Source: a virus (lineage: Duplodnaviria; Heunggongvirae; Uroviricota; Caudoviricetes). From it: a DNA stretch of 33,695 nt. The stretch is taken from the IMG/VR virus record IMGVR_UViG_2737471863_000001; one strand, given 5' to 3'. The notes under the pieces were generated by a model that did not search any database, was not told the DNA's origin, and saw only the letters and a list, made by a program, of their open reading frames with translations. A program made the translations under genes and the position numbers. Positions 8,906 through 28,525 of the stretch are shown piece by piece (the first letter of the stretch is position 1; each line of letters starts with the position of its first letter).

Positions 8906-9966
8906 GTGGCCACCGCCTTTGTTTTCTTCGTCTTCGCTTTCATTTCCGGCATGTCCAGTGATTCTGGCGGAACCAGCGCCAGAACCGTCATCCGTCCCTG
9001 TGCGCCATCCGTCCAGGTCACCCCGGATATCAGCCAGGTGGTTTTCAGGTTCTGAATGCTGTCGTCGATATCGACAAGGCGGTTGGTCTGCCACAACGGG
9101 CCGCTGTCGCCCTGTTCGCGCCAGCCTGCCACCGTGATTTCCGTCGTGCGGGATTCCCCCAGCATCCGGGCTTTGTACCATTCCCCGCGAATGCTGGCCC
9201 CGCCCACGGTCAGGCTGTCTTCATTGACCAGAATGCGCGGGCGGTAACGGTTAATTTCCGGGTCTTCGGTGATGTACTGGCGACCGCCCACCATCGAGGC
9301 AGGCTGGCTGTCCCACAGTTTGCCACCGGCACTGGTGGTACCCTTGATGATGTACTGGCTGTTACGCTCCCGCCAGCTGAAGCGCCCACGGGCTGCGAGG
9401 ATATTTTTCCCCAGCACCAGTGACACACCCGCGCGAATGGAAGAGGCGCGGGTGATAATCAGGTTACCCGCCCCGTCAGACGTCAGCAGAACGCCGCGCT
9501 GTTTTGCCAGCCGGTCGAGCAGTTCAAAACCCGTTTCACCCTGTTCCAGAACGACGGACGCAAACGCCTCCCCGGTCGGGGTTTCCGTGATGACGGTTAT
9601 CCCGAACGGGCGGCAGACATCAGCCGCCACCTGTTCAAGCCGCACACCTTTCCATTTCCCGGACGAATGCACCACAGAGCAGTCAACCAGGTCGCCGGTT
9701 TTGTCGCGCCCCATGACGCGAATCTCCACGTTATCTGCGTCATAGCTGGGGATAAAATCATCGATATACCCCGTCAGCACGGTATCCGCGCCCAGCCTGA
9801 CCGTGCAGGGTTGCCCCTCACGAATTACGCGCGGTGCCGCTGCCGACCAGCGGGTTGTCACACTGAGATCAAACTCACCGGCAATCGCCTTCAGGGAACG
9901 ACTGACGGACATTTCCGTCCAGCCTTCCCACAGCTTGCCGTTAACGGTAAGAACAACAGATTCCAT
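8896..9966 (-). CDS. baseplate hub / tail protein (Mu Q/gp44-like, P2 gpD-like)
   Basis: 356 aa, ATG 9966 overlapping the P stop codon by one base. Confidence 0.7.
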   Translation of the reverse strand: MESVVLTVNGKLWEGWTEMSVSRSLKAIAGEFDLSVTTRWSAAAPRVIREGQPCTVRLGADTVLTGYIDDFIPSYDADNVEIRVMGRDKTGDLVDCSVVHSSGKWKGVRLEQVAADVCRPFGITVITETPTGEAFASVVLEQGETGFELLDRLAKQRGVLLTSDGAGNLIITRASSIRAGVSLVLGKNILAARGRFSWRERNSQYIIKGTTSAGGKLWDSQPASMVGGRQYITEDPEINRYRPRILVNEDSLTVGGASIRGEWYKARMLGESRTTEITVAGWREQGDSGPLWQTNRLVDIDDSIQNLKTTWLISGVTWTDGAQGRMTVLALVPPESLDMPEMKAKTKKTKAVATWD

Positions 9967-11240
9967 CAGTCGGTAATCTCCACAGGCTGCGTTGGCAGTA
10001 TGAATGACGGATGGCGCAGGCGGTTACGCTGCACGATTTCATCCCGTCGGCTGGTGTCACCATGTTCGCGCCATGCCAGCAATGCGGCAGATGTGGTTGT
10101 GGTCAGCATTACCTGTCGGGTTTCCGGCAGACGGGCGGCACGCTCGCGGGCATCCGTAATCACGGCCTGCCGTAAATCGCGCAGCGTTCGCCACAATGCC
10201 CGCTGGTTATTTTCCACCGCTGCCACCGCCTGCTCATGCAGTTCAGCTGCCAGCGTGTCACCGGCAGATAACGCCGCATCACTGGTATCGAACGTCATCG
10301 AGGCCACGGCATTTGCCTGTCCCAGCAGGGTTTCCAGCACAACCACCTGGCGGAAGTCGTCAATGTTCTTCTGCAGGCTGTCAGATACCGGCTGATAACC
10401 CGGTGACAGCCCGATAGCAAAGCCGGGTTTGCCGTCTGCCACGCTGCCGGGCTTCACGGTGATATCTTCCGGCAGTGCGCCGGTGGCAACCTGTCGGGCG
10501 CGTTCTCCGGCCCACTGATTGCGTAATGTCGTGTAAACCGCCAGTGCTTCGGGTGGTTCCGTCACCAGATCAACCACGCCGTCGATGAACGAGGACAACT
10601 CACTGACCAGACGTCCCGGCGTGGCAATAATGGTTCCGGCCATCTCCTTAAAATGGTTCAGCCTGTCCATCCACTGATTCAGTGCTGCCGGTAGCGTGGG
10701 CAGGTTAGCCACAAGGTTTTCCATATCAGCCAGAAAGCTGTCGGCCATCTCACCCAGCCCGTCAAGTGCGCCGAACCAGTCGCCATCGTCGATGGCAGCT
10801 TTTACCGCATCAATGCCCGTCAGCACTTCCTGCTGCGTGTTATCCGCCGCAGACGGGAACAGGCGCTCGCCTGCCTCAAACACTTCAAAGGTGACATACG
10901 CAATGCCGTCTTCCTCCGTGCTGAGGCGATGGGTGACCTTGCCAACCTGTACGGTCTGTATCCCGAACCACGGGTGGATAAGCTCGCCGGGGCCGGGAGT
11001 ATTAAGCGCGTCTAAAAGGGCGTTTAAATCATCCTGGAAGTTTTTACCTGGCAGCTTTGCGTTAATCTGCTGTTGCCCCGGAACAGCCCCGTTATCATCC
11101 GTCCAGGCGGTTTCGCGCCGGGGATACGCGCGGGGAATCGCTCTGCGGCCACCGGTGCCTTCTGTATCCACCAGAAAGAAGGGAACGCCGCGAAACGAGG
11201 CATCGCGCAGCCCGTCCCATTTGCCTTTGCTCGTTGTCAT
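9966..11240 (-). CDS. tail/DNA circularisation protein (Mu P/gp43-like)
   Basis: 424 aa, ATG 11240 overlapping the tape-measure stop (TAATG). Confidence 0.7.
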   Translation of the reverse strand: MTTSKGKWDGLRDASFRGVPFFLVDTEGTGGRRAIPRAYPRRETAWTDDNGAVPGQQQINAKLPGKNFQDDLNALLDALNTPGPGELIHPWFGIQTVQVGKVTHRLSTEEDGIAYVTFEVFEAGERLFPSAADNTQQEVLTGIDAVKAAIDDGDWFGALDGLGEMADSFLADMENLVANLPTLPAALNQWMDRLNHFKEMAGTIIATPGRLVSELSSFIDGVVDLVTEPPEALAVYTTLRNQWAGERARQVATGALPEDITVKPGSVADGKPGFAIGLSPGYQPVSDSLQKNIDDFRQVVVLETLLGQANAVASMTFDTSDAALSAGDTLAAELHEQAVAAVENNQRALWRTLRDLRQAVITDARERAARLPETRQVMLTTTTSAALLAWREHGDTSRRDEIVQRNRLRHPSFILPTQPVEITD

Positions 11241-17493: not shown

Positions 17494-18399
17494 TTATGCC
17501 GGGGTGGTGATGTACGGGCTGTCCACGATCTCCACATCCTTGTACCAGATGTTGGAATCGCCGCCGTTAACCAGCATGGCGTCAATAATGCGCTTCGCAG
17601 CCGCGCGGTTTTTCGGCCCCACCACAAGAGTGGTCGGGCGGATGCCCAGCGGCTCACCGTTGGTGCCCTTCATGCCCCGCAGCAACTCATTGGCTTTTTT
17701 GTAGTTCTCCACCGTCAGTGCTGCACGGGAACCGACGGCGGTCTGCCAGAAGCCGAAGCCCGCATTACAGCGACCGTCCACCCCGTACAGGAACTCGTGG
17801 TTCTTGAAGGTGTGCTCGCTGTTCAGATCGTCCAGGGCTTCAAATTTAAAGGCGCGTCGCGTCTGCCAGATGATGGGTTTCAGCACCTGCGACTCATCAA
17901 TCAGAAACCACGGTTCGCCCTGGTCCGTTCCTGGTGTACCGACAACGTTGCTGTAGGTGCCATCACCCAGCGGGTGGTCTTCATCAAAGAAGTTCTGGCC
18001 GTCAAAGCACAAAGTTTTGAATCCGGCACACAGCAGGGCGTAACACAGCTTGTCCGGGAACACGGCTGTCATACGTCCATAGCGTTCAGCAGTAATGCTG
18101 TACTGACCAATCTGGTCATCTTCAATGTGTTCGCGCTTAACGCGAATGGAACTTTCCCAGAGTTTGTTGGTGATGGTGTAACCATAACCGTCCAGCGTTG
18201 CCAGCTGACGCTCACCGACCCATTCTTTGATGTCCGGTAAATCTTTCATCCAGCCGTAGGTGTTGGAGGCTGACGAACTCGGCACCTCAGAAGCAATGCG
18301 ATTCCACTGCGGTTCGACACCACTCAGTCCACGGGTAAAGGCGGCGCTCAGGCAGGTGGTCAGTGCATGAAGGATTTCAGAACTGACAGTCTGTCCCAT
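17494..18399 (-). CDS. major capsid protein (Mu T-like)
   Basis: 301 aa, ATG 18399 overlapping the I stop (TAATG); position after protease/scaffold. Confidence 0.85.
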   Translation of the reverse strand: MGQTVSSEILHALTTCLSAAFTRGLSGVEPQWNRIASEVPSSSASNTYGWMKDLPDIKEWVGERQLATLDGYGYTITNKLWESSIRVKREHIEDDQIGQYSITAERYGRMTAVFPDKLCYALLCAGFKTLCFDGQNFFDEDHPLGDGTYSNVVGTPGTDQGEPWFLIDESQVLKPIIWQTRRAFKFEALDDLNSEHTFKNHEFLYGVDGRCNAGFGFWQTAVGSRAALTVENYKKANELLRGMKGTNGEPLGIRPTTLVVGPKNRAAAKRIIDAMLVNGGDSNIWYKDVEIVDSPYITTPA

Positions 18400-19361
18400 T
18401 AGTTGTTCTCCTGTTTTGGTTTAGCGGCGAGGAACTCTTCCCCGGTAATACCCATGCTGCGACACATCGCCAGTTCGGCGTCGGTCAGTGTCTGCGCGGG
18501 TTTATCCTTGCCCTGGCTGGGCTTGTCGTTGTTCACCAGCGGCTGTGTGCCTTTGGTGTATTCCGCAAACTGTTTGCGGCCTTCTTCCGTGCGGCAGGTG
18601 GCAAGGAACATGTCACGGTTTGCCGGGGCCACTTTTCCGGCTTCGATGGCCGCATCCACAAGCGCCCCGGCTTCCTTCTCTTCCAGTTGCTGAAGGCGTT
18701 TTTCTGCGGTTTCGGCACGGTTCAGTGCCAGATTGTGGGTTTCCACCGGCACAAACTTCGTCAGATCAGGTGTCTGTGCGCGGTTCAGCGCCACCTGTTC
18801 GTTCTCCTGAAGTTGTTTAATGGCAGCCACGGTATCGTCCACCGTAGCGGATTCAGCCAGCCCAAGCAGGCCGGTGATTTGCACAGGTACTGTCATCGGG
18901 TTTTTCTCCGTATTCAGTGCAGGAAAATCCAGGTTAGGTTTGTTGGTCAGCCCGACGCTGGACAGGCGCGTCACCACACCCTCCGCGTCATAGAAAAACG
19001 CCGGGCTGTAATAGCGGTAGCGACGCTCACTCAGCATCCAGCGGGCGTACTCGCTCCAGACAACACGGCCTTCAATGGTGCCGCCATCCGTCACCCGCAG
19101 TTCTTCCACCCAGCCATACGCCGGGGCTTCATCACCGCGTTGCCCTTTAATTTCGGTGGCATGTTCAATGTCCACCGGAATTTTGATGTCGGACGAACGG
19201 GCGATCACCTCATGCGGATTGCGGTTAATCCACGTCCGTCCATCGCGCCCGGTGAACTCACCCGCAGGGACGAGCTCAAGCCATTCCGGCAGTTGAGCAG
19301 GTGTCAGCTCAGGGATGGGTTCTGGCAGGGAAAAACACAGCGCCAGCAGTTCCGGTTGCAT
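18399..19361 (-). CDS. head maturation protease / scaffold protein (Mu I-like)
   Basis: 320 aa, ATG 19361; Glu/Ala-rich coiled-coil C-terminal half typical of scaffold. Confidence 0.75.
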   Translation of the reverse strand: MQPELLALCFSLPEPIPELTPAQLPEWLELVPAGEFTGRDGRTWINRNPHEVIARSSDIKIPVDIEHATEIKGQRGDEAPAYGWVEELRVTDGGTIEGRVVWSEYARWMLSERRYRYYSPAFFYDAEGVVTRLSSVGLTNKPNLDFPALNTEKNPMTVPVQITGLLGLAESATVDDTVAAIKQLQENEQVALNRAQTPDLTKFVPVETHNLALNRAETAEKRLQQLEEKEAGALVDAAIEAGKVAPANRDMFLATCRTEEGRKQFAEYTKGTQPLVNNDKPSQGKDKPAQTLTDAELAMCRSMGITGEEFLAAKPKQENN

Positions 19362-19410
19362 GTCAGTCTCCGTCGTTTGGGGTTACCGACGGTCAGTATG
19401 CGGAAGGCAG

Positions 19411-19436
19411 AAAAAAAGCCGGATTTACCGGCTTCA
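19411..19436 (-). terminator. rho-independent terminator (second of two after F)
   Basis: Minus strand reads AAGCCGG-TAAAT-CCGGCTT followed by TTTTTTT; identical to the copy at 27131-27156. Confidence 0.5.
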
Positions 19437-19523
19437 CTGAAAACAGGGAAATACCCCCTTCAAAACCCCTTCAAAAACGCCACAGCACCTTCAAAAAAGT
19501 CAGAATGCACATTCACGCCATCA

Positions 19524-19551
19524 GAATAAAAAACGCATTTCTGATGCGTTT
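19524..19551 (-). terminator. rho-independent terminator 24 nt after the F stop
   Basis: Stem aaacgcat / atgcgttt (19531-19538, 19544-19551), 5-nt loop, followed on the minus strand by UUUUUUAU. Confidence 0.45.
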
Positions 19552-19574
19552 CAGGGGGATTTACGGCGGGAGGG

Positions 19575-20339
19575 TTACTCACTGTCAAAACGGGCCTGTT
19601 TTGTCGCCAGCTGGCGCGCCAGCTCCTGCTCACGGTTTATGCCGGGATTGTAGTTCCAGCCCGGATCAATCCCTTCCGGTACATCTTCCTCTTCGCCCGT
19701 GCGTTTGTTCACCCAGCGGACAGTCCGGATTTCCGGCGCTTCGGTCTGAATGGTGCCCTGTGCCGCCAGTTGCGCATACTCACCACGGCTGACCTGACGG
19801 ATGGTGCATTTGCAGCCCCAGCCGTTAGGGGCAAAATGCGTCTGCCAGAACGGATGATCTACCGGCAGACACAGACGCGCCCATTTCACATGCTCCGCCC
19901 GGTGCTCGCGGGATGGCCCCAGCTCATAAATCAGATACGGCATGGCCCGCTTTGTCCGCTGAATGCGTTCCCACTGGCCCGCCGCGCGGGCGGTGCGCAT
20001 GTTGGTGTCAAAAATCGTGCGGAGGCGGCGGTCGCTGCCCAACTGTACGGTGCGCCTTTCACCCGTCAGCGGATCATCCATCTCCTGAACGCCCCACCAT
20101 CCGCGCTTTATCAGCAGCGGTTGCAGCGCCTCCCGGAACTCGCTGAACGTCTGCCCGCTTTGCAGGGCGTCTTCCACAAGGGCTTTCACATCCGACAACA
20201 AATCCAGTTGCAGCATTTTTGCCACGGTGAAGCTGTTCCGGTGCTCTTCCCGCCACACATCCCGGTAATCAAAACCGGGGCGCAGCTTCTTCGCCTTCAG
20301 CCACGCCAGCGCCTCTTTCGGGATGAGGGTTTCACGCAT
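19575..20339 (-). CDS. head morphogenesis protein (Mu F-like)
   Basis: Start taken at ATG 20339 (GGGGGA SD), overlapping the portal stop by 8 nt; track ORF opens at TTG 20396. Confidence 0.7.
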   Translation of the reverse strand: MRETLIPKEALAWLKAKKLRPGFDYRDVWREEHRNSFTVAKMLQLDLLSDVKALVEDALQSGQTFSEFREALQPLLIKRGWWGVQEMDDPLTGERRTVQLGSDRRLRTIFDTNMRTARAAGQWERIQRTKRAMPYLIYELGPSREHRAEHVKWARLCLPVDHPFWQTHFAPNGWGCKCTIRQVSRGEYAQLAAQGTIQTEAPEIRTVRWVNKRTGEEEDVPEGIDPGWNYNPGINREQELARQLATKQARFDSE

Positions 20340-21903
20340 GGCCGGTGTCCCCCAGCGCACGCGCCTTAAAGCACACCTCCGCCAGTTGCAGGGCAAAGTC
20401 GTCCGCGTTCAGCGTTTCCTGAAGCTCAGGCAGGCGTTTCAGAAAGTCATCAAAACTGTCGCATTCCTGCGCCAGTGTCAGCACCGGGTTCGTGAACGCT
20501 TCGCCGGTTTTCTGCCAGTCACGCAGGGCATCATCCACCATCTGTGCCAGTTCGTCGGGGTGTTCCCGGTTCAGGGCGACGCGCTCGCGGTTCATCGCCA
20601 CATCACCTGACATTCCGGCAGACACCGGATGCAGAACATCAGCCCCGTCGTCCGGTTCAGCCAGGCCGAACCGGTCCCGCAGCTCCGATTCCTGAACCCG
20701 CATCCCCCGGTCAATCAGCGGCACCAGAGCATCTGTCAGCGCCTTCAGATCTTCCGCTTCACTGATACGCAGAACAACACGAGGATAGTGCGCCTGTGGC
20801 CCGTAGTTGGCCTCGATGTAGGGACGCACCAGATATTCATTCAGCGTGTTAGCCAGTTGCCGTGCATCCCAGCGCACAATGTCCATGCGCACCTGATTGT
20901 GCACGTCCGCCTGTGAACGCGAACTGCCGTTATCCGTGGTCATGGTCTGCCCCAGCACAGCCTTACTGATTTGCGCATCACACCATTCCGCCATTTCACG
21001 GAACAGTGCGCCGCCGTTATTCCGGCTGGCGGTTTCCTTCATCTCCAGTTGCATGGACTGCGGAATGGCACACCCGGCATCCGAGGCAATGGAGGCAATC
21101 GCATCAATCAGCACGCGGATTTGCTCCTCCGTGGCGTTGGGACCGTATTTCCCCACCGTGACCGGAATGCCAAATTTTTCCGCGAATGCCCACCAGTCGC
21201 GCACGGTAAAGGATTTCAGCATGTACATCACCGCCACCAGACGGGCCAGACCGTTACGCAACGGCAGACCGGATTTCAGGCGAGGCTGGTGAACAATGAA
21301 TTTTCCCGGTGTCAGCAGTACGCCATCCACCGGTTCGTCATCCGTCAGCAGGCGGAACTGGCGCAGCGTGGGCTTTTCGGCTTTCAGAAAACGGGGATCA
21401 ACCCACTCATAATCACGGGGCATCCAGTGGTTGTTGCGGGTGTCCCACAGGATTTCACAGACCGCCACGCCTTTTCCCAGCCCGTCGAGCAAATCAAACA
21501 TCAGTTCGGGGATTTGCGGGGCTTCCATCAGTGCACGGATGGCGTCCGCCAGTTGCACGTCAGCATCGTCATCACTGGCGGCCACCACCACCGGTTCGAT
21601 ACCCGCCACCGTCAGCTTGCGGGTGCGCAGCACCGAGGCGTAATGCAAATCGCGTTCTTCCATCTCTTCGGCAAGGATAAAAAAATCACGTGTGATGCCG
21701 TCGGCGGCATTGCGCAGAATGCCTGCCAGCCTGCCGGGGTTCAGCCCGGAGGCGATGCTGATGCCCGGCGAGGCCGAACGCACGCCAGCCTGACGCGGAC
21801 GGGCCTGTGCTTCGTTGAGCGCCTCTTTTTTCAGCGTGTCTTCCTCACCGGTTGCCGGGTTCAGCAGACGGCGAACGGCCCCGGCCAGTTGTTTCAGGTT
21901 CAC
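20332..21903 (-). CDS. portal protein (Mu H/gp29-like)
   Basis: 523 aa; starts at GTG 21903 with GAGGGAGG SD, overlapping the terminase stop (GTGA); no in-frame ATG nearby. Confidence 0.85.
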   Translation of the reverse strand: MNLKQLAGAVRRLLNPATGEEDTLKKEALNEAQARPRQAGVRSASPGISIASGLNPGRLAGILRNAADGITRDFFILAEEMEERDLHYASVLRTRKLTVAGIEPVVVAASDDDADVQLADAIRALMEAPQIPELMFDLLDGLGKGVAVCEILWDTRNNHWMPRDYEWVDPRFLKAEKPTLRQFRLLTDDEPVDGVLLTPGKFIVHQPRLKSGLPLRNGLARLVAVMYMLKSFTVRDWWAFAEKFGIPVTVGKYGPNATEEQIRVLIDAIASIASDAGCAIPQSMQLEMKETASRNNGGALFREMAEWCDAQISKAVLGQTMTTDNGSSRSQADVHNQVRMDIVRWDARQLANTLNEYLVRPYIEANYGPQAHYPRVVLRISEAEDLKALTDALVPLIDRGMRVQESELRDRFGLAEPDDGADVLHPVSAGMSGDVAMNRERVALNREHPDELAQMVDDALRDWQKTGEAFTNPVLTLAQECDSFDDFLKRLPELQETLNADDFALQLAEVCFKARALGDTGHA

Positions 21904-26478: not shown

Positions 26479-27075
26479 TCACCCCCGCGTGGCGGACATG
26501 ATGCCCAGAGGGGTATCGATGATTTCCAGACAGGCGTCGGTCAGCTTTTCCATGCGGTTAAACCAGCCGTTCAGGTATTTGCCCTGGGCGGGTTTTGATT
26601 TGATGATGTCGGCATAAAAGCGGGAGCGACGGACAATACAGCGGGCCAGCAGCCAGTCAGGGGTGGACTGGCTCACGGCCTTGCGGGTACGCGGCCCGAT
26701 GATGCCGTCAGCATCCACATCAGCGGCTTCCTGCAAAAGTTTGATAGCCTTTTTAACGCCATGCTGAACCGCCGCATCAAACACAAAAAGCGCCACGCCA
26801 TCAGGCCACTGGTCACATCCGGCAGGCAGCCAGTAATCACGCAGGTAAATCTGTGCGGCCTGTTCGCGGGTTAAATCTTTGATGCGGGTATCCGGTTTAC
26901 CGTCACCGTTGACATCGGTTTTGCCGTCAATCACACCGTCGCGGCGGTCAGAAATGCCGTATTTGGTTTCGCCGCCACGGTCAGTGGAGTCATTGACATA
27001 GACGCCTTCGATATCGGGACGCAGAATGAAATTCAGCGCATGCTCAAAGGCCGGGGAGAATTTTTGATTTTCCAT
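26479..27075 (-). CDS. endolysin: GH108-type lysozyme domain with C-terminal peptidoglycan-binding domain, no N-terminal SAR/TM segment
   Basis: 198 aa, ATG 27075; hallmark IEGVYVNDSTDRGGETKYGIS of the GH108 family; no hydrophobic N-terminus. Confidence 0.8.
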   Translation of the reverse strand: MENQKFSPAFEHALNFILRPDIEGVYVNDSTDRGGETKYGISDRRDGVIDGKTDVNGDGKPDTRIKDLTREQAAQIYLRDYWLPAGCDQWPDGVALFVFDAAVQHGVKKAIKLLQEAADVDADGIIGPRTRKAVSQSTPDWLLARCIVRRSRFYADIIKSKPAQGKYLNGWFNRMEKLTDACLEIIDTPLGIMSATRG

Positions 27076-27130
27076 AAAAACACCTGTGAAGCAGAGTTAA
27101 ACGTGGTCTGCTTCATGGTGCCGGAGGCAT

Positions 27131-27156
27131 AAAAAAAGCCGGATTTACCGGCTTCA
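27131..27156 (-). terminator. rho-independent terminator between the Mor/C gene and lys
   Basis: Same 26-nt element as 19411-19436; begins 5 nt after the Mor/C stop (27161). Confidence 0.55.
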
Positions 27157-27160
27157 TTGA

Positions 27161-27610
27161 TTAAGGGCGTCGTGGCGGACGACGAACGGGGTGAGGCAGG
27201 TTCGGGGAGGGGTAAAACAAATCCGGCTGGTATTTATTGCGCTCCAGACGTCGCATCCGTTTGATGGCCTTGTAGACGGTTTTATACGTCACTCCGTAAC
27301 GCTGAACCAGTTCAGGAATATTATGGCCGTTAAAATCACGCCAGATACGCATATCCCGGACAAGATTCTCCAGAATATTCCCCCTCGGAACATAAACCTG
27401 CATCCCGCCGATATGGCGACAAATCGCCACAACCAGCTCAAGGGAATGAGCAGGGTCTGCGCCAATCCGGGCCAGCTCTTTACGCAGCAGTGCGTTCAGT
27501 TCAGAAAGTAACGCCGGATAAGCGGTGTTTTCCTGGTAATCATGAAGATATTCCAGAACGCTGTCGTCCCGGAGGTCTTCGAATAAATCCTGCTCTTTCA
27601 TCTGTTTCAT
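27161..27610 (-). CDS. Mor/C-family transcription activator (cannot say whether Mor or C orthologue)
   Basis: 149 aa, ATG 27610 overlapping the gemA stop (ATGA); N-terminal acidic region and C-terminal HTH VYKAIKRMRRLE; sits between gemA and lys. Confidence 0.7.
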   Translation of the reverse strand: MKQMKEQDLFEDLRDDSVLEYLHDYQENTAYPALLSELNALLRKELARIGADPAHSLELVVAICRHIGGMQVYVPRGNILENLVRDMRIWRDFNGHNIPELVQRYGVTYKTVYKAIKRMRRLERNKYQPDLFYPSPNLPHPVRRPPRRP

Positions 27611-28158
27611 ACAGCAATTCTCCCGCTGTTTCGTGCGCGGGCATACGCACTGGTCAGTGCATCATAGCCGCGCAGTTCCCGCCCGGATGGGCTTACAGGT
27701 AAAGGCACACCATGTCGGGCAAAGGCTTCACGGATGCAGCGCATGTGCCACTGTTTGAGCGTTTCGAGCACAACCTGCAACGATTCCCCGTGACACCATG
27801 CCAGCGTGGAAACACCCTGACCGCCATTACGTCTGGCCGTCAGGCGTTCAACGTATTTGTCCAGCGCGGCGTCGCTGATATCGGATACGAAACCATCAAG
27901 AAACATCTGCTGCCAGATTTTATAAATCTTCTCGCGCGGTGTGACATGCCCCTTAAAGCGACGGCGGGGATGTTTATTCTGCTTTTTAAAACCGCGCTCT
28001 TTCATGGCATCGAGCACTTGTTCCAGTTGTGCAACGGACAGCTCGCGGCAACTGGTTTTGCCCGTGCACTGCACCAGAAAGGCGCGGTAAGTGTCATCGT
28101 CGAGGTGCAACTCCCGGCGGGCAACATGAATTAATTTAATCAGGGATGTGCGACTCAT
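27607..28158 (-). CDS. gemA: GemA-like protein (Mu gp16 family)
   Basis: Start taken at ATG 28158 (AAGGAGA SD), 183 aa; N-terminus MSRTSLIKLIHVARRELHLDDDTYRAF is characteristic of the gp16/GemA family. Confidence 0.6.
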   Translation of the reverse strand: MSRTSLIKLIHVARRELHLDDDTYRAFLVQCTGKTSCRELSVAQLEQVLDAMKERGFKKQNKHPRRRFKGHVTPREKIYKIWQQMFLDGFVSDISDAALDKYVERLTARRNGGQGVSTLAWCHGESLQVVLETLKQWHMRCIREAFARHGVPLPVSPSGRELRGYDALTSAYARARNSGRIAV

Positions 28159-28525
28159 TTTGCCCCATCTCCTTAATGCAGTGTTTTTCGACCCATGCCA
28201 CACGAGCAGAATTCAGGTGGCATCTGTCATGCAGGCATTCATCATGGTAGTGCACGTTATCTACATTAAATGGCAGGGATTCATCCAGCCCACTCGCGAC
28301 AAAATCCGCATGTAATTGTTCTAGCGCAGCCTCGCTGTCTGCTCCGATTGATTCAAAATAGTCATAAACATTGGCGCATAATCCGACTCCCCGAATAAAC
28401 CCTTCCCCTTCCGTTTCTTGCGCTCCGTTTTTTAACCACTGGTTATAGGCGACATAAAAATCATAAAGATGTTTTCTGGTGCTGGCGGATGCGGATTTAA
28501 TTTCATTTTTCTCTGCGTTATTCAT
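28136..28525 (-). CDS. hypothetical early-region protein
   Basis: 129 aa, ATG 28525; acidic, Cys/His-containing C-terminus; no family recognised. Confidence 0.4.
   Translation of the reverse strand: MNNAEKNEIKSASASTRKHLYDFYVAYNQWLKNGAQETEGEGFIRGVGLCANVYDYFESIGADSEAALEQLHADFVASGLDESLPFNVDNVHYHDECLHDRCHLNSARVAWVEKHCIKEMGQNESHIPD

Follow-up and report, generated by a model that had tools for sequence, protein, structure and literature searches.

[quoted passage not shown] In the Mu GenBank record the gyrase cut site (17879/17880) is placed in the spacer between genes G and I, 176 nt upstream of I, and is followed by a predicted terminator (17908-17953), the late promoter PI (17977-18043) and the I start codon (18056); measured along the whole genome, the gyrase site stands at 48.7%. 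To the right of the cut, Mu reads CAGCCGCACAGA-TTTTTTAAAACG-CGCCACGGGA-TTTTTAAACCGG-TATTTAACGG, where the units TTTTTTAAAACG and TTTTTAAACCGG are separated by N10 and TATTTAACGG comes next. [quoted passage not shown] Genome-wide, the Topo-Seq motif of E. coli gyrase extends over 130 bp, with a central core, two arms and a 10.75-bp periodicity of GC% (PMC6379681). The activator Mor binds a 16-bp element composed of 5-bp inverted repeats around a G/C-rich hexamer, centred at -43.5 and spanning -51 to -36 (PMC4390567, PMC4287176).

The DNA analyzed here, called the window throughout, is a stretch of 33,695 bp that represents a Mu-like transposable prophage. All of its genes lie on the minus strand, and the repeat element described below is therefore to be read on the minus strand. 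ORFs for a transposase and a MuB-like protein are present, and Pfam identified GemA, Mor, a GH108 endolysin, F, I and T (Table 1). A search of 5,426 complete E. coli genomes found the F–I spacer at 95-99% identity in 49, mostly at two matching places per genome, and the prophage lineage is thus present in about 1% of complete E. coli genomes; a blastn search with the spacer against 50,697 deposited phage records gave no match at blastn sensitivity.

The F–I spacer is 213 bp long (19362-19574) and runs, on the minus strand, from the F stop codon (19575-19577) to the I start codon (19359-19361). The original prediction that it holds three copies of CCTTCAAAA was exact: on the plus strand they occupy 19457-19465, 19468-19476 and 19488-19496, all three fall within 40 nt of the spacer, and there is no other copy in the window. 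The chance expectation is 0.28 matches per window, and three were reached in none of 100 dinucleotide-preserving shuffles. In the sense of the genes the units are TTTTTTGAAGG, TTTTTGAAGG and TTTTGAAGG; the first two start 20 nt apart and the last two 11 nt apart, and together with two further T-tracts in phase with them they make up a phased right arm of about 59 bp (19440-19499). The alternation of A/T and G/C was ranked by Fourier power at a period of 10.5-11, with the Mu right arm as control. By this measure 19437-19506 was among the top 0.02-0.2% of positions in the window, and the Mu right arm among the top 0.1-0.5% of Mu positions; at a period of exactly 10.75, in segments of 44-66 nt, the rank of the window block was the top 0.02-0.16%.

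Table 1. Positions of genes and of observed or predicted spacer features in the window
Feature	Position	Strand	Basis or remark
GemA	27607-28203	-	Pfam
Mor-family activator	27161-27610	-	PF08765, E=3.6e-30
Second promoter-module copy (candidate Plys), 90% identical	27119-27160	-	repeat family D8
GH108 endolysin	26479-27075	-	Pfam
F	19575-20396	-	Pfam
Intrinsic terminator 1 (GAAACGCAUCAGAAAUGCGUUUUUU), predicted	19524-19552	-	terminator scan; stem 19552-19530
Putative gyrase core (G-segment)	19499-19523		Mu cut site aligns opposite
R1 (CTTTTTTGAAGG)	19488-19499	-	distal phased unit, right arm; Mu homologue TTTTTTAAAACG
R2 (GTTTTTGAAGG)	19468-19478	-	homologues: Mu TTTTTAAACCG, relatives TTTTTAAACG
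R3 (GTTTTGAAGG)	19457-19466	-	homologues: Mu TATTTAACGG, relatives GTTTAAACG
Two further in-phase T-tracts (GGGGGTATTTCCCTGTTTT)	19440-19456	-	A-tract centres at multiples of ~10.75 bp
Mor-type activator element AGTGA-AGCCGG-TAAAT, 16 bp, predicted	19423-19438	-	-51 to -36 by Mu Pm register
Predicted PI -10 hexamer CATACT	19395-19400	-	register from CGGTWAATCC
Inverted repeat CCGTCG-N11-CGACGG, then Shine-Dalgarno GGAG (19368-19371)	19368-19392	-	fold
Protease/scaffold I	18399-19361	-	Pfam
Capsid T	17494-18399	-	Pfam

Alignment of the spacers with MAFFT brought the three window repeats into register, column for column, with Mu 17891–17935, a stretch that begins 11 nt to the right of the Mu cut site, and the same columns held the TTAAACG/TTTAAACG/TTTGAACG units of 10 relatives. 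An nhmmer profile was built from 13 relatives only, with both Mu and the window left out. Searched against the whole 36.7-kb Mu genome, this profile gave its best match at 17888-17937 (E=1.9e-5), beginning 8 nt to the right of the cut, and its top match in the window was syntenic (19455-19481, minus strand) but weak (E=0.053), because the units there have drifted to GAAGG. In a strong/weak (S/W) match to the published 133-bp gyrase consensus, whose score is GC-dominated, the Mu SGS itself, which served as positive control, did not come near the top, so that this score speaks neither for nor against the window site. The position within the prophage was taken from copies with known extent. The copy in E. 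coli STEC346 is a prophage of about 35.2 kb that interrupts an alanine racemase-like gene, and its repeats lie 16.4 kb from the left end, that is, at 46.7% of the length; in the complete Klebsiella phage Kp4866-3 (33,090 bp), whose genome ends bear transposase-site-like repeats, the block lies at 48.1%. [quoted passage not shown] Oram and Pato are said to have found in 2004 that the central sites of some Mu-like prophages are cut by gyrase and yet do not support Mu replication; homology alone is thus no guarantee of full SGS function.

The breadth of the block was examined in I-homologue loci taken from species-representative genomes. A conserved block was found upstream of I in Raoultella, Klebsiella, Kluyvera, Brenneria, Serratia, Pluralibacter and Trabulsiella, and also in Moraxellaceae and Pseudomonadales MAGs, where the I proteins are 41-43% identical. 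In the relatives it has the form GCG-TTTTTAAACG-nGG-TTTAAACG-nGGTT and is preceded, at a distance of about 20 nt, by a third unit (TTGTTAAACG); judged from the alignment the window unit TTTTGAAGG is a lineage variant of TTTAAACG. Within each lineage the units alter in concert (alignment columns 104-147): the window has TTTGAAGG in all three, the Klebsiella lineage TTTGAACG in R2 as well as R3, and most others TTTAAACG, a pattern that points either to conversion among the units or to selection that keeps them identical. The pattern TTTTRAACGNGGTTTRAACG was matched in 83 IMG/VR contigs, 80 of which were analyzed. In 64 of these it was oriented like the genes and lay downstream of an F/G-like gene, no more than 500 nt ahead of an I-like gene, or both; five carried it reversed, beside F/G-like genes, and eight were without a detectable head gene in the stored stretch. 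The I proteins of these contigs are 25-77% identical to the query, so the marker covers many Mu-like lineages, and several of these lineages have three to four tandem 11-nt units. Five loci (L012, L013, L019, L023 and L024) showed no block upstream of I and gave weak profile matches elsewhere (E=0.005-0.5). In one of these, the Enterovibrio norvegicus prophage L012, a phased TTTAA block is located 7.5 kb upstream of the I promoter (9914-9960; 2519-2557) with a profile E=0.02, and is possibly a relocated gyrase site. What the analysis shows for this element is its right-arm homology to the Mu SGS, its phasing, its place close to the genome centre, and its presence at the F/G-I junction of a wide range of lineages.

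The same conservation bears on whether another protein might read the units. Under this explanation the 11-bp-spaced direct repeats would be sites for a phage protein or for a host winged-helix response regulator, and it would account for the base-by-base conservation of TTTAAACG across distant hosts and for the way in which the units change together in a lineage (all GAAGG in the window, GAACG in R2/R3 of Klebsiella). The arrangement TTGAAG-N5-TTGAAG also has what we take to be the geometry of OmpR/PhoB-family sites (hexamer-N5-hexamer). We nevertheless consider a separate reader of this kind very unlikely: no candidate protein was identified, conservation over Enterobacterales, Moraxellaceae and Pseudomonadales speaks against a host-specific regulator, and in Mu the homologous sequence has been characterized by experiment as a gyrase site, with a structure that shows it wrapped around GyrA (PMC11626157, PMC10052514). 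The base-level conservation of TTTAAACG is greater than generic bendability requires, and this, along with the concerted change, means that the unit may be read sequence-specifically. A speculative version, which we hold to be unlikely, is that the 11-bp unit GGTTTAAACGn is recognized by the GyrA beta-pinwheel, with one unit per blade contact, or by a phage or nucleoid factor that cooperates with gyrase in establishing the prophage domain. The placement of the units between the terminator and PI might, in addition, couple late transcription to gyrase loading.

On the preferred reading, that of a gyrase-wrapping right arm, the cleaved core would lie just upstream of R1, where the Mu cut site aligns. 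The putative core of the window contains the palindrome GAATGTGCATTC (19503-19514), and by the Mu register cleavage would fall near 19507-19511, a guess with an uncertainty of several nt. The core sequence is unlike that of Mu and unlike that of the relatives, which have TGTGRTACGATG in common. A transfer of the Mu cut site by homology was ruled out, as the cores are not alike and the lineages are set apart by indels of 4-7 nt; for the same reason only an approximate core region is given. In the relatives L003-L010 and L025, TGTGRTACGATG stands about 25 nt upstream of R1, and the window, which is without it, has terminator 1 and the palindrome GAATGTGCATTC. The shared TGTGRTACGATG of the relatives could be a gyrase core, and it also reads as an extended -10-like TGnTACGAT. 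Terminator 1 folds with -8.8 kcal/mol (z = -4.8) and is absent from the relatives, which have other sequence in its place; it is predicted to close the lys-to-F late transcript, and it lies where the left arm of the gyrase site would be expected. Just past the F stop codon of the window (19557-19566, minus strand), CCGTAAATCC is a degenerate third copy of the activator-site core, in the place where Klebsiella-type relatives carry a perfect hairpin, GAGGCGGTAATCCGCCTC. In the window as a whole, CGGTWAATCC occurs 14 times at one mismatch or fewer, with 3.0 expected.

Downstream of the arm, a second hairpin precedes I (terminator 2; minus strand, stem 19435-19415, T7 run 19411-19417, fold -12.8 kcal/mol). 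The predicted 16-bp Mor-type element overlaps the left half and loop of this stem-loop (19415-19435) and is near-identical to Mu Pm in the same register (AGTAAAGCCGGTTAAT). The Mor-dependent middle promoter Pm of Mu, located directly after mor, reads AGTAAAGCCGGTTAATCCGGCTTTTTTTACGTCCTCAATATCCT and is nearly the same as the window module; in our reading, its AGTAA-AGCCGG-TTAAT fits the Mor element if TATCCT is the -10 hexamer. The window holds a second copy of the module between the stop codon of the Mor-family gene, which it adjoins, and the endolysin gene. From its sequence and place this copy is taken as Plys, the equivalent of Mu Pm; the I-proximal module (19399-19440, 42 nt) and this copy share the exact 25-mer GAAGCCGGTAAATCCGGCTTTTTTT. 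Mu Pm reads AAAGCCGGTTAATCCGGCTTTTTTT, and in Pm as in both window modules the register between CGGTWAATCC and the -10 hexamer is 30 nt; one window copy likewise sits right after mor, and the Mu record, too, annotates a terminator inside Pm. Given the match to Pm and the recurrence upstream of lys, the I-proximal hairpin is most likely the activator site of the late promoter PI, and it may also terminate upstream transcription.

The register of this predicted promoter was followed in the relatives. In the window copies ahead of I (CATACT) and lys (CACCAT), CGGTWAATCC is followed 20 nt on by a hexamer whose second base is A and whose sixth is T; this is also seen in two copies in each of 10 enterobacterial relatives, with a 1-nt shift in some I-proximal copies, and the loop variant (TAAAT or TTAAT) is always identical in the two copies of one genome. 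The I-proximal hairpin and its T-run are degenerate in the Klebsiella, Serratia and Brenneria salicis lineages, where the repeats are kept; even where the I-proximal hairpin is decayed or absent, CGGTWAATC is still present as the core, at an unchanged distance from the hexamer. The window hexamer CATACT aligns with CAAACT within the annotated PI region of Mu, and the register would put the PI start site at about 19387. In L012 the I promoter has CGGTAAATC at the same register to TATTCT, and hairpin, T-run and repeat block are all missing. The window encodes a Mor-family activator, the dyad stands at a fixed distance from the -10, there is no -35, and more than one late operon carries the module, as for Pm-type promoters. 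A sigma-70 promoter scan of 19000-20000 found no site, which fits activator-dependent promoters, as these have no -35. In Mu, Mor drives Pm whereas C, with a different site, drives Plys and PI; in the window the ORF scan identified a single Mor/C homologue, which appears to serve the lys operon and the I operon alike through a Pm-type site.

Several further observations concern the late promoters. At 8490-8543 (minus strand), within a baseplate V-like gene and about 150 nt upstream of a gp46-like start (8372), CAGGGAAAACGGTAAATCTCACC is followed by TATTAT at the promoter register; this site could be a third late promoter of the Mor type, comparable to Mu PP, which is also intragenic. Inverted repeats come right after the -10 hexamer in the window (19368-19392 and 27080-27108) and at Plys/PI of Mu (10443-10485 and 18025-18050), end at or near the ribosome-binding site or start codon, and might act in stabilization of the mRNA 5′ end or in translation control. 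The one ahead of the I start codon recurs in the relatives, and RNAalifold counted no compensatory change there. Kp4866-3 (L002) carries an AT-rich ORF of 110 aa (7958-8290), inserted between its mor-family gene and the lys-promoter module, apparently a membrane protein and with the look of a moron; the extra ORF that the STEC346 copy has here is a different one.

The original prediction had proposed that the repeats, as a UP-like element or a target of Mor/C, serve the promoter of the I unit. Such an upstream promoter element, whether UP-like, a set of extra activator sites or a bend that assists Mor, could coexist with a gyrase site, and several features speak for it: the repeats are upstream of I with phased A/T-tracts, a Mor-family activator is encoded in the window, and in Mu, too, PI is found just downstream of the SGS. 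We judge it improbable on the following grounds. A UP element, the site of alpha-CTD, is A/T-rich and located at about -40 to -60 of the promoter that it serves. The repeats lie at about -70 to -109 (in the register shared with Mu Pm, from the predicted start site), and this is too far upstream for a UP element; the Mor-type site and -10 are instead accounted for by the I-proximal hairpin and the sequence just downstream of it. Moreover, the identical lys module abuts the mor coding sequence with no repeats. When the spacer was compared across relatives the repeat block was kept upstream of I, but the Vibrionaceae relative L012 keeps the activator site and the -10 upstream of I with no repeat block. 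Finally, Mu Pm activity is unaffected by mutations upstream of -57 (PMC4390567), and Mor/C proteins bind a 16-bp dyad rather than direct repeats (PMC4390567, PMC2582627). The repeats had also been described as flanked by tandem terminators, which is borne out in that a hairpin with a T-run is present on each side and is revised in that the second is most likely a promoter element, possibly with a terminating role as well.

Because both flanking hairpins resemble intrinsic terminators, the repeats might alternatively act as RNA, either as part of the lys-to-F terminator or an attenuator, or within a small RNA made from a spacer promoter to the second hairpin. The Mu TransTermHP terminator (17908-17953) encloses units 2-3, relatives have the extended -10-like TGnTACGAT upstream of the block, and a weak, terminator-driven match to sroD was obtained, all of which would agree with an RNA role. 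However, no Rfam 15 family came near its threshold, sroD being the best with 20.8 bits against 50 and deriving its score from the terminator stem; a known RNA family in the spacer was rejected, as all Rfam matches were sub-threshold. The RNAalifold covariation term was -0.42 in total, with at most one compensatory change in the repeat block, and the stem that RNAalifold pairs there comes from palindromic TTTAAA. The window spacer is without a sigma-70 promoter, and the lineages of Klebsiella, Serratia and Brenneria salicis that keep the repeats have a second hairpin that is degenerate and lacks a T-run. A small RNA from the TGnTACGAT box to the second hairpin was rejected as a candidate too, since the window is without the box, several lineages have only a degenerate form of the hairpin, and covariation is absent. 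Taken as a whole, an RNA function for the repeats seems highly improbable to us.

The function of the element therefore probably concerns prophage topology rather than transcription of I, with DNA gyrase as the proposed partner, and the element would be of the SGS type in a new Mu-like prophage, which we favor over a promoter element for I. The notion of an iterated protein-binding site is retained in the phased contact and bending signals, with host DNA gyrase as the best-supported partner in place of a transcription factor. By analogy with Mu, we infer gyrase binding, cleavage, a cut position and a role in transposition for the window prophage. In the proposed mechanism the alternation of A/T-rich and G/C-rich sequence every ~10.75 bp would let the arm bend smoothly round the GyrA C-terminal beta-pinwheel, and gyrase would cleave the core a few turns upstream of the arm, roughly in the region listed in Table 1. 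As in Mu, processive supercoiling from the near-central site could then extrude the prophage as a plectonemic loop, so that the two prophage ends would meet for transpososome assembly and replicative transposition. The element would share its spacer with the upstream lys-to-F terminator and with the downstream, Mor-activated late promoter PI.

An unexplained repeat is thereby given a specific assignment, that of the predicted gyrase-wrapping arm of a central SGS in a Mu-like lineage, and the second "terminator" is re-annotated as a predicted Mor-type late promoter. As a diverged natural right arm, with GAAGG for AAACG units and another core, the element would offer a variant for finding out what features underlie wrapping and processivity. 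The pattern TTTTRAACGNGGTTTRAACG is a practical marker for candidate gyrase sites in uncharacterized transposable phages, given its placement at the F/G-I junction in most of the contigs analyzed.

Compared with known gyrase sites, the window element shares with the Topo-Seq motif the arm-type alternation, and the consensus arm (...CCTTTGGGGGCCTTTAAGGGGGCCTTTTGG...) resembles TTTTGAAGGGGTTTTGAAGGGGG, whereas the window has one evident arm only (PMC6379681). From the Mu SGS it differs in its units, which are TTTTGAAGG in the window and TTTAAAAC(G/C) in the Mu type, and in the core around the cut site, whose sequence is unrelated. The upstream gene is F in the window and G in Mu, a G-like gene being found downstream of T in the window, and the window terminator lies in the left arm whereas the predicted terminator of Mu overlaps the right arm. 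In both phages, the site is located near the genome centre in the spacer upstream of the protease/scaffold gene I, the features follow in the order gyrase site, terminator, late promoter PI and I, and three alignable A/T-rich units are spaced by 20-22 nt and then 11-13 nt with a phasing of ~10.75 bp.
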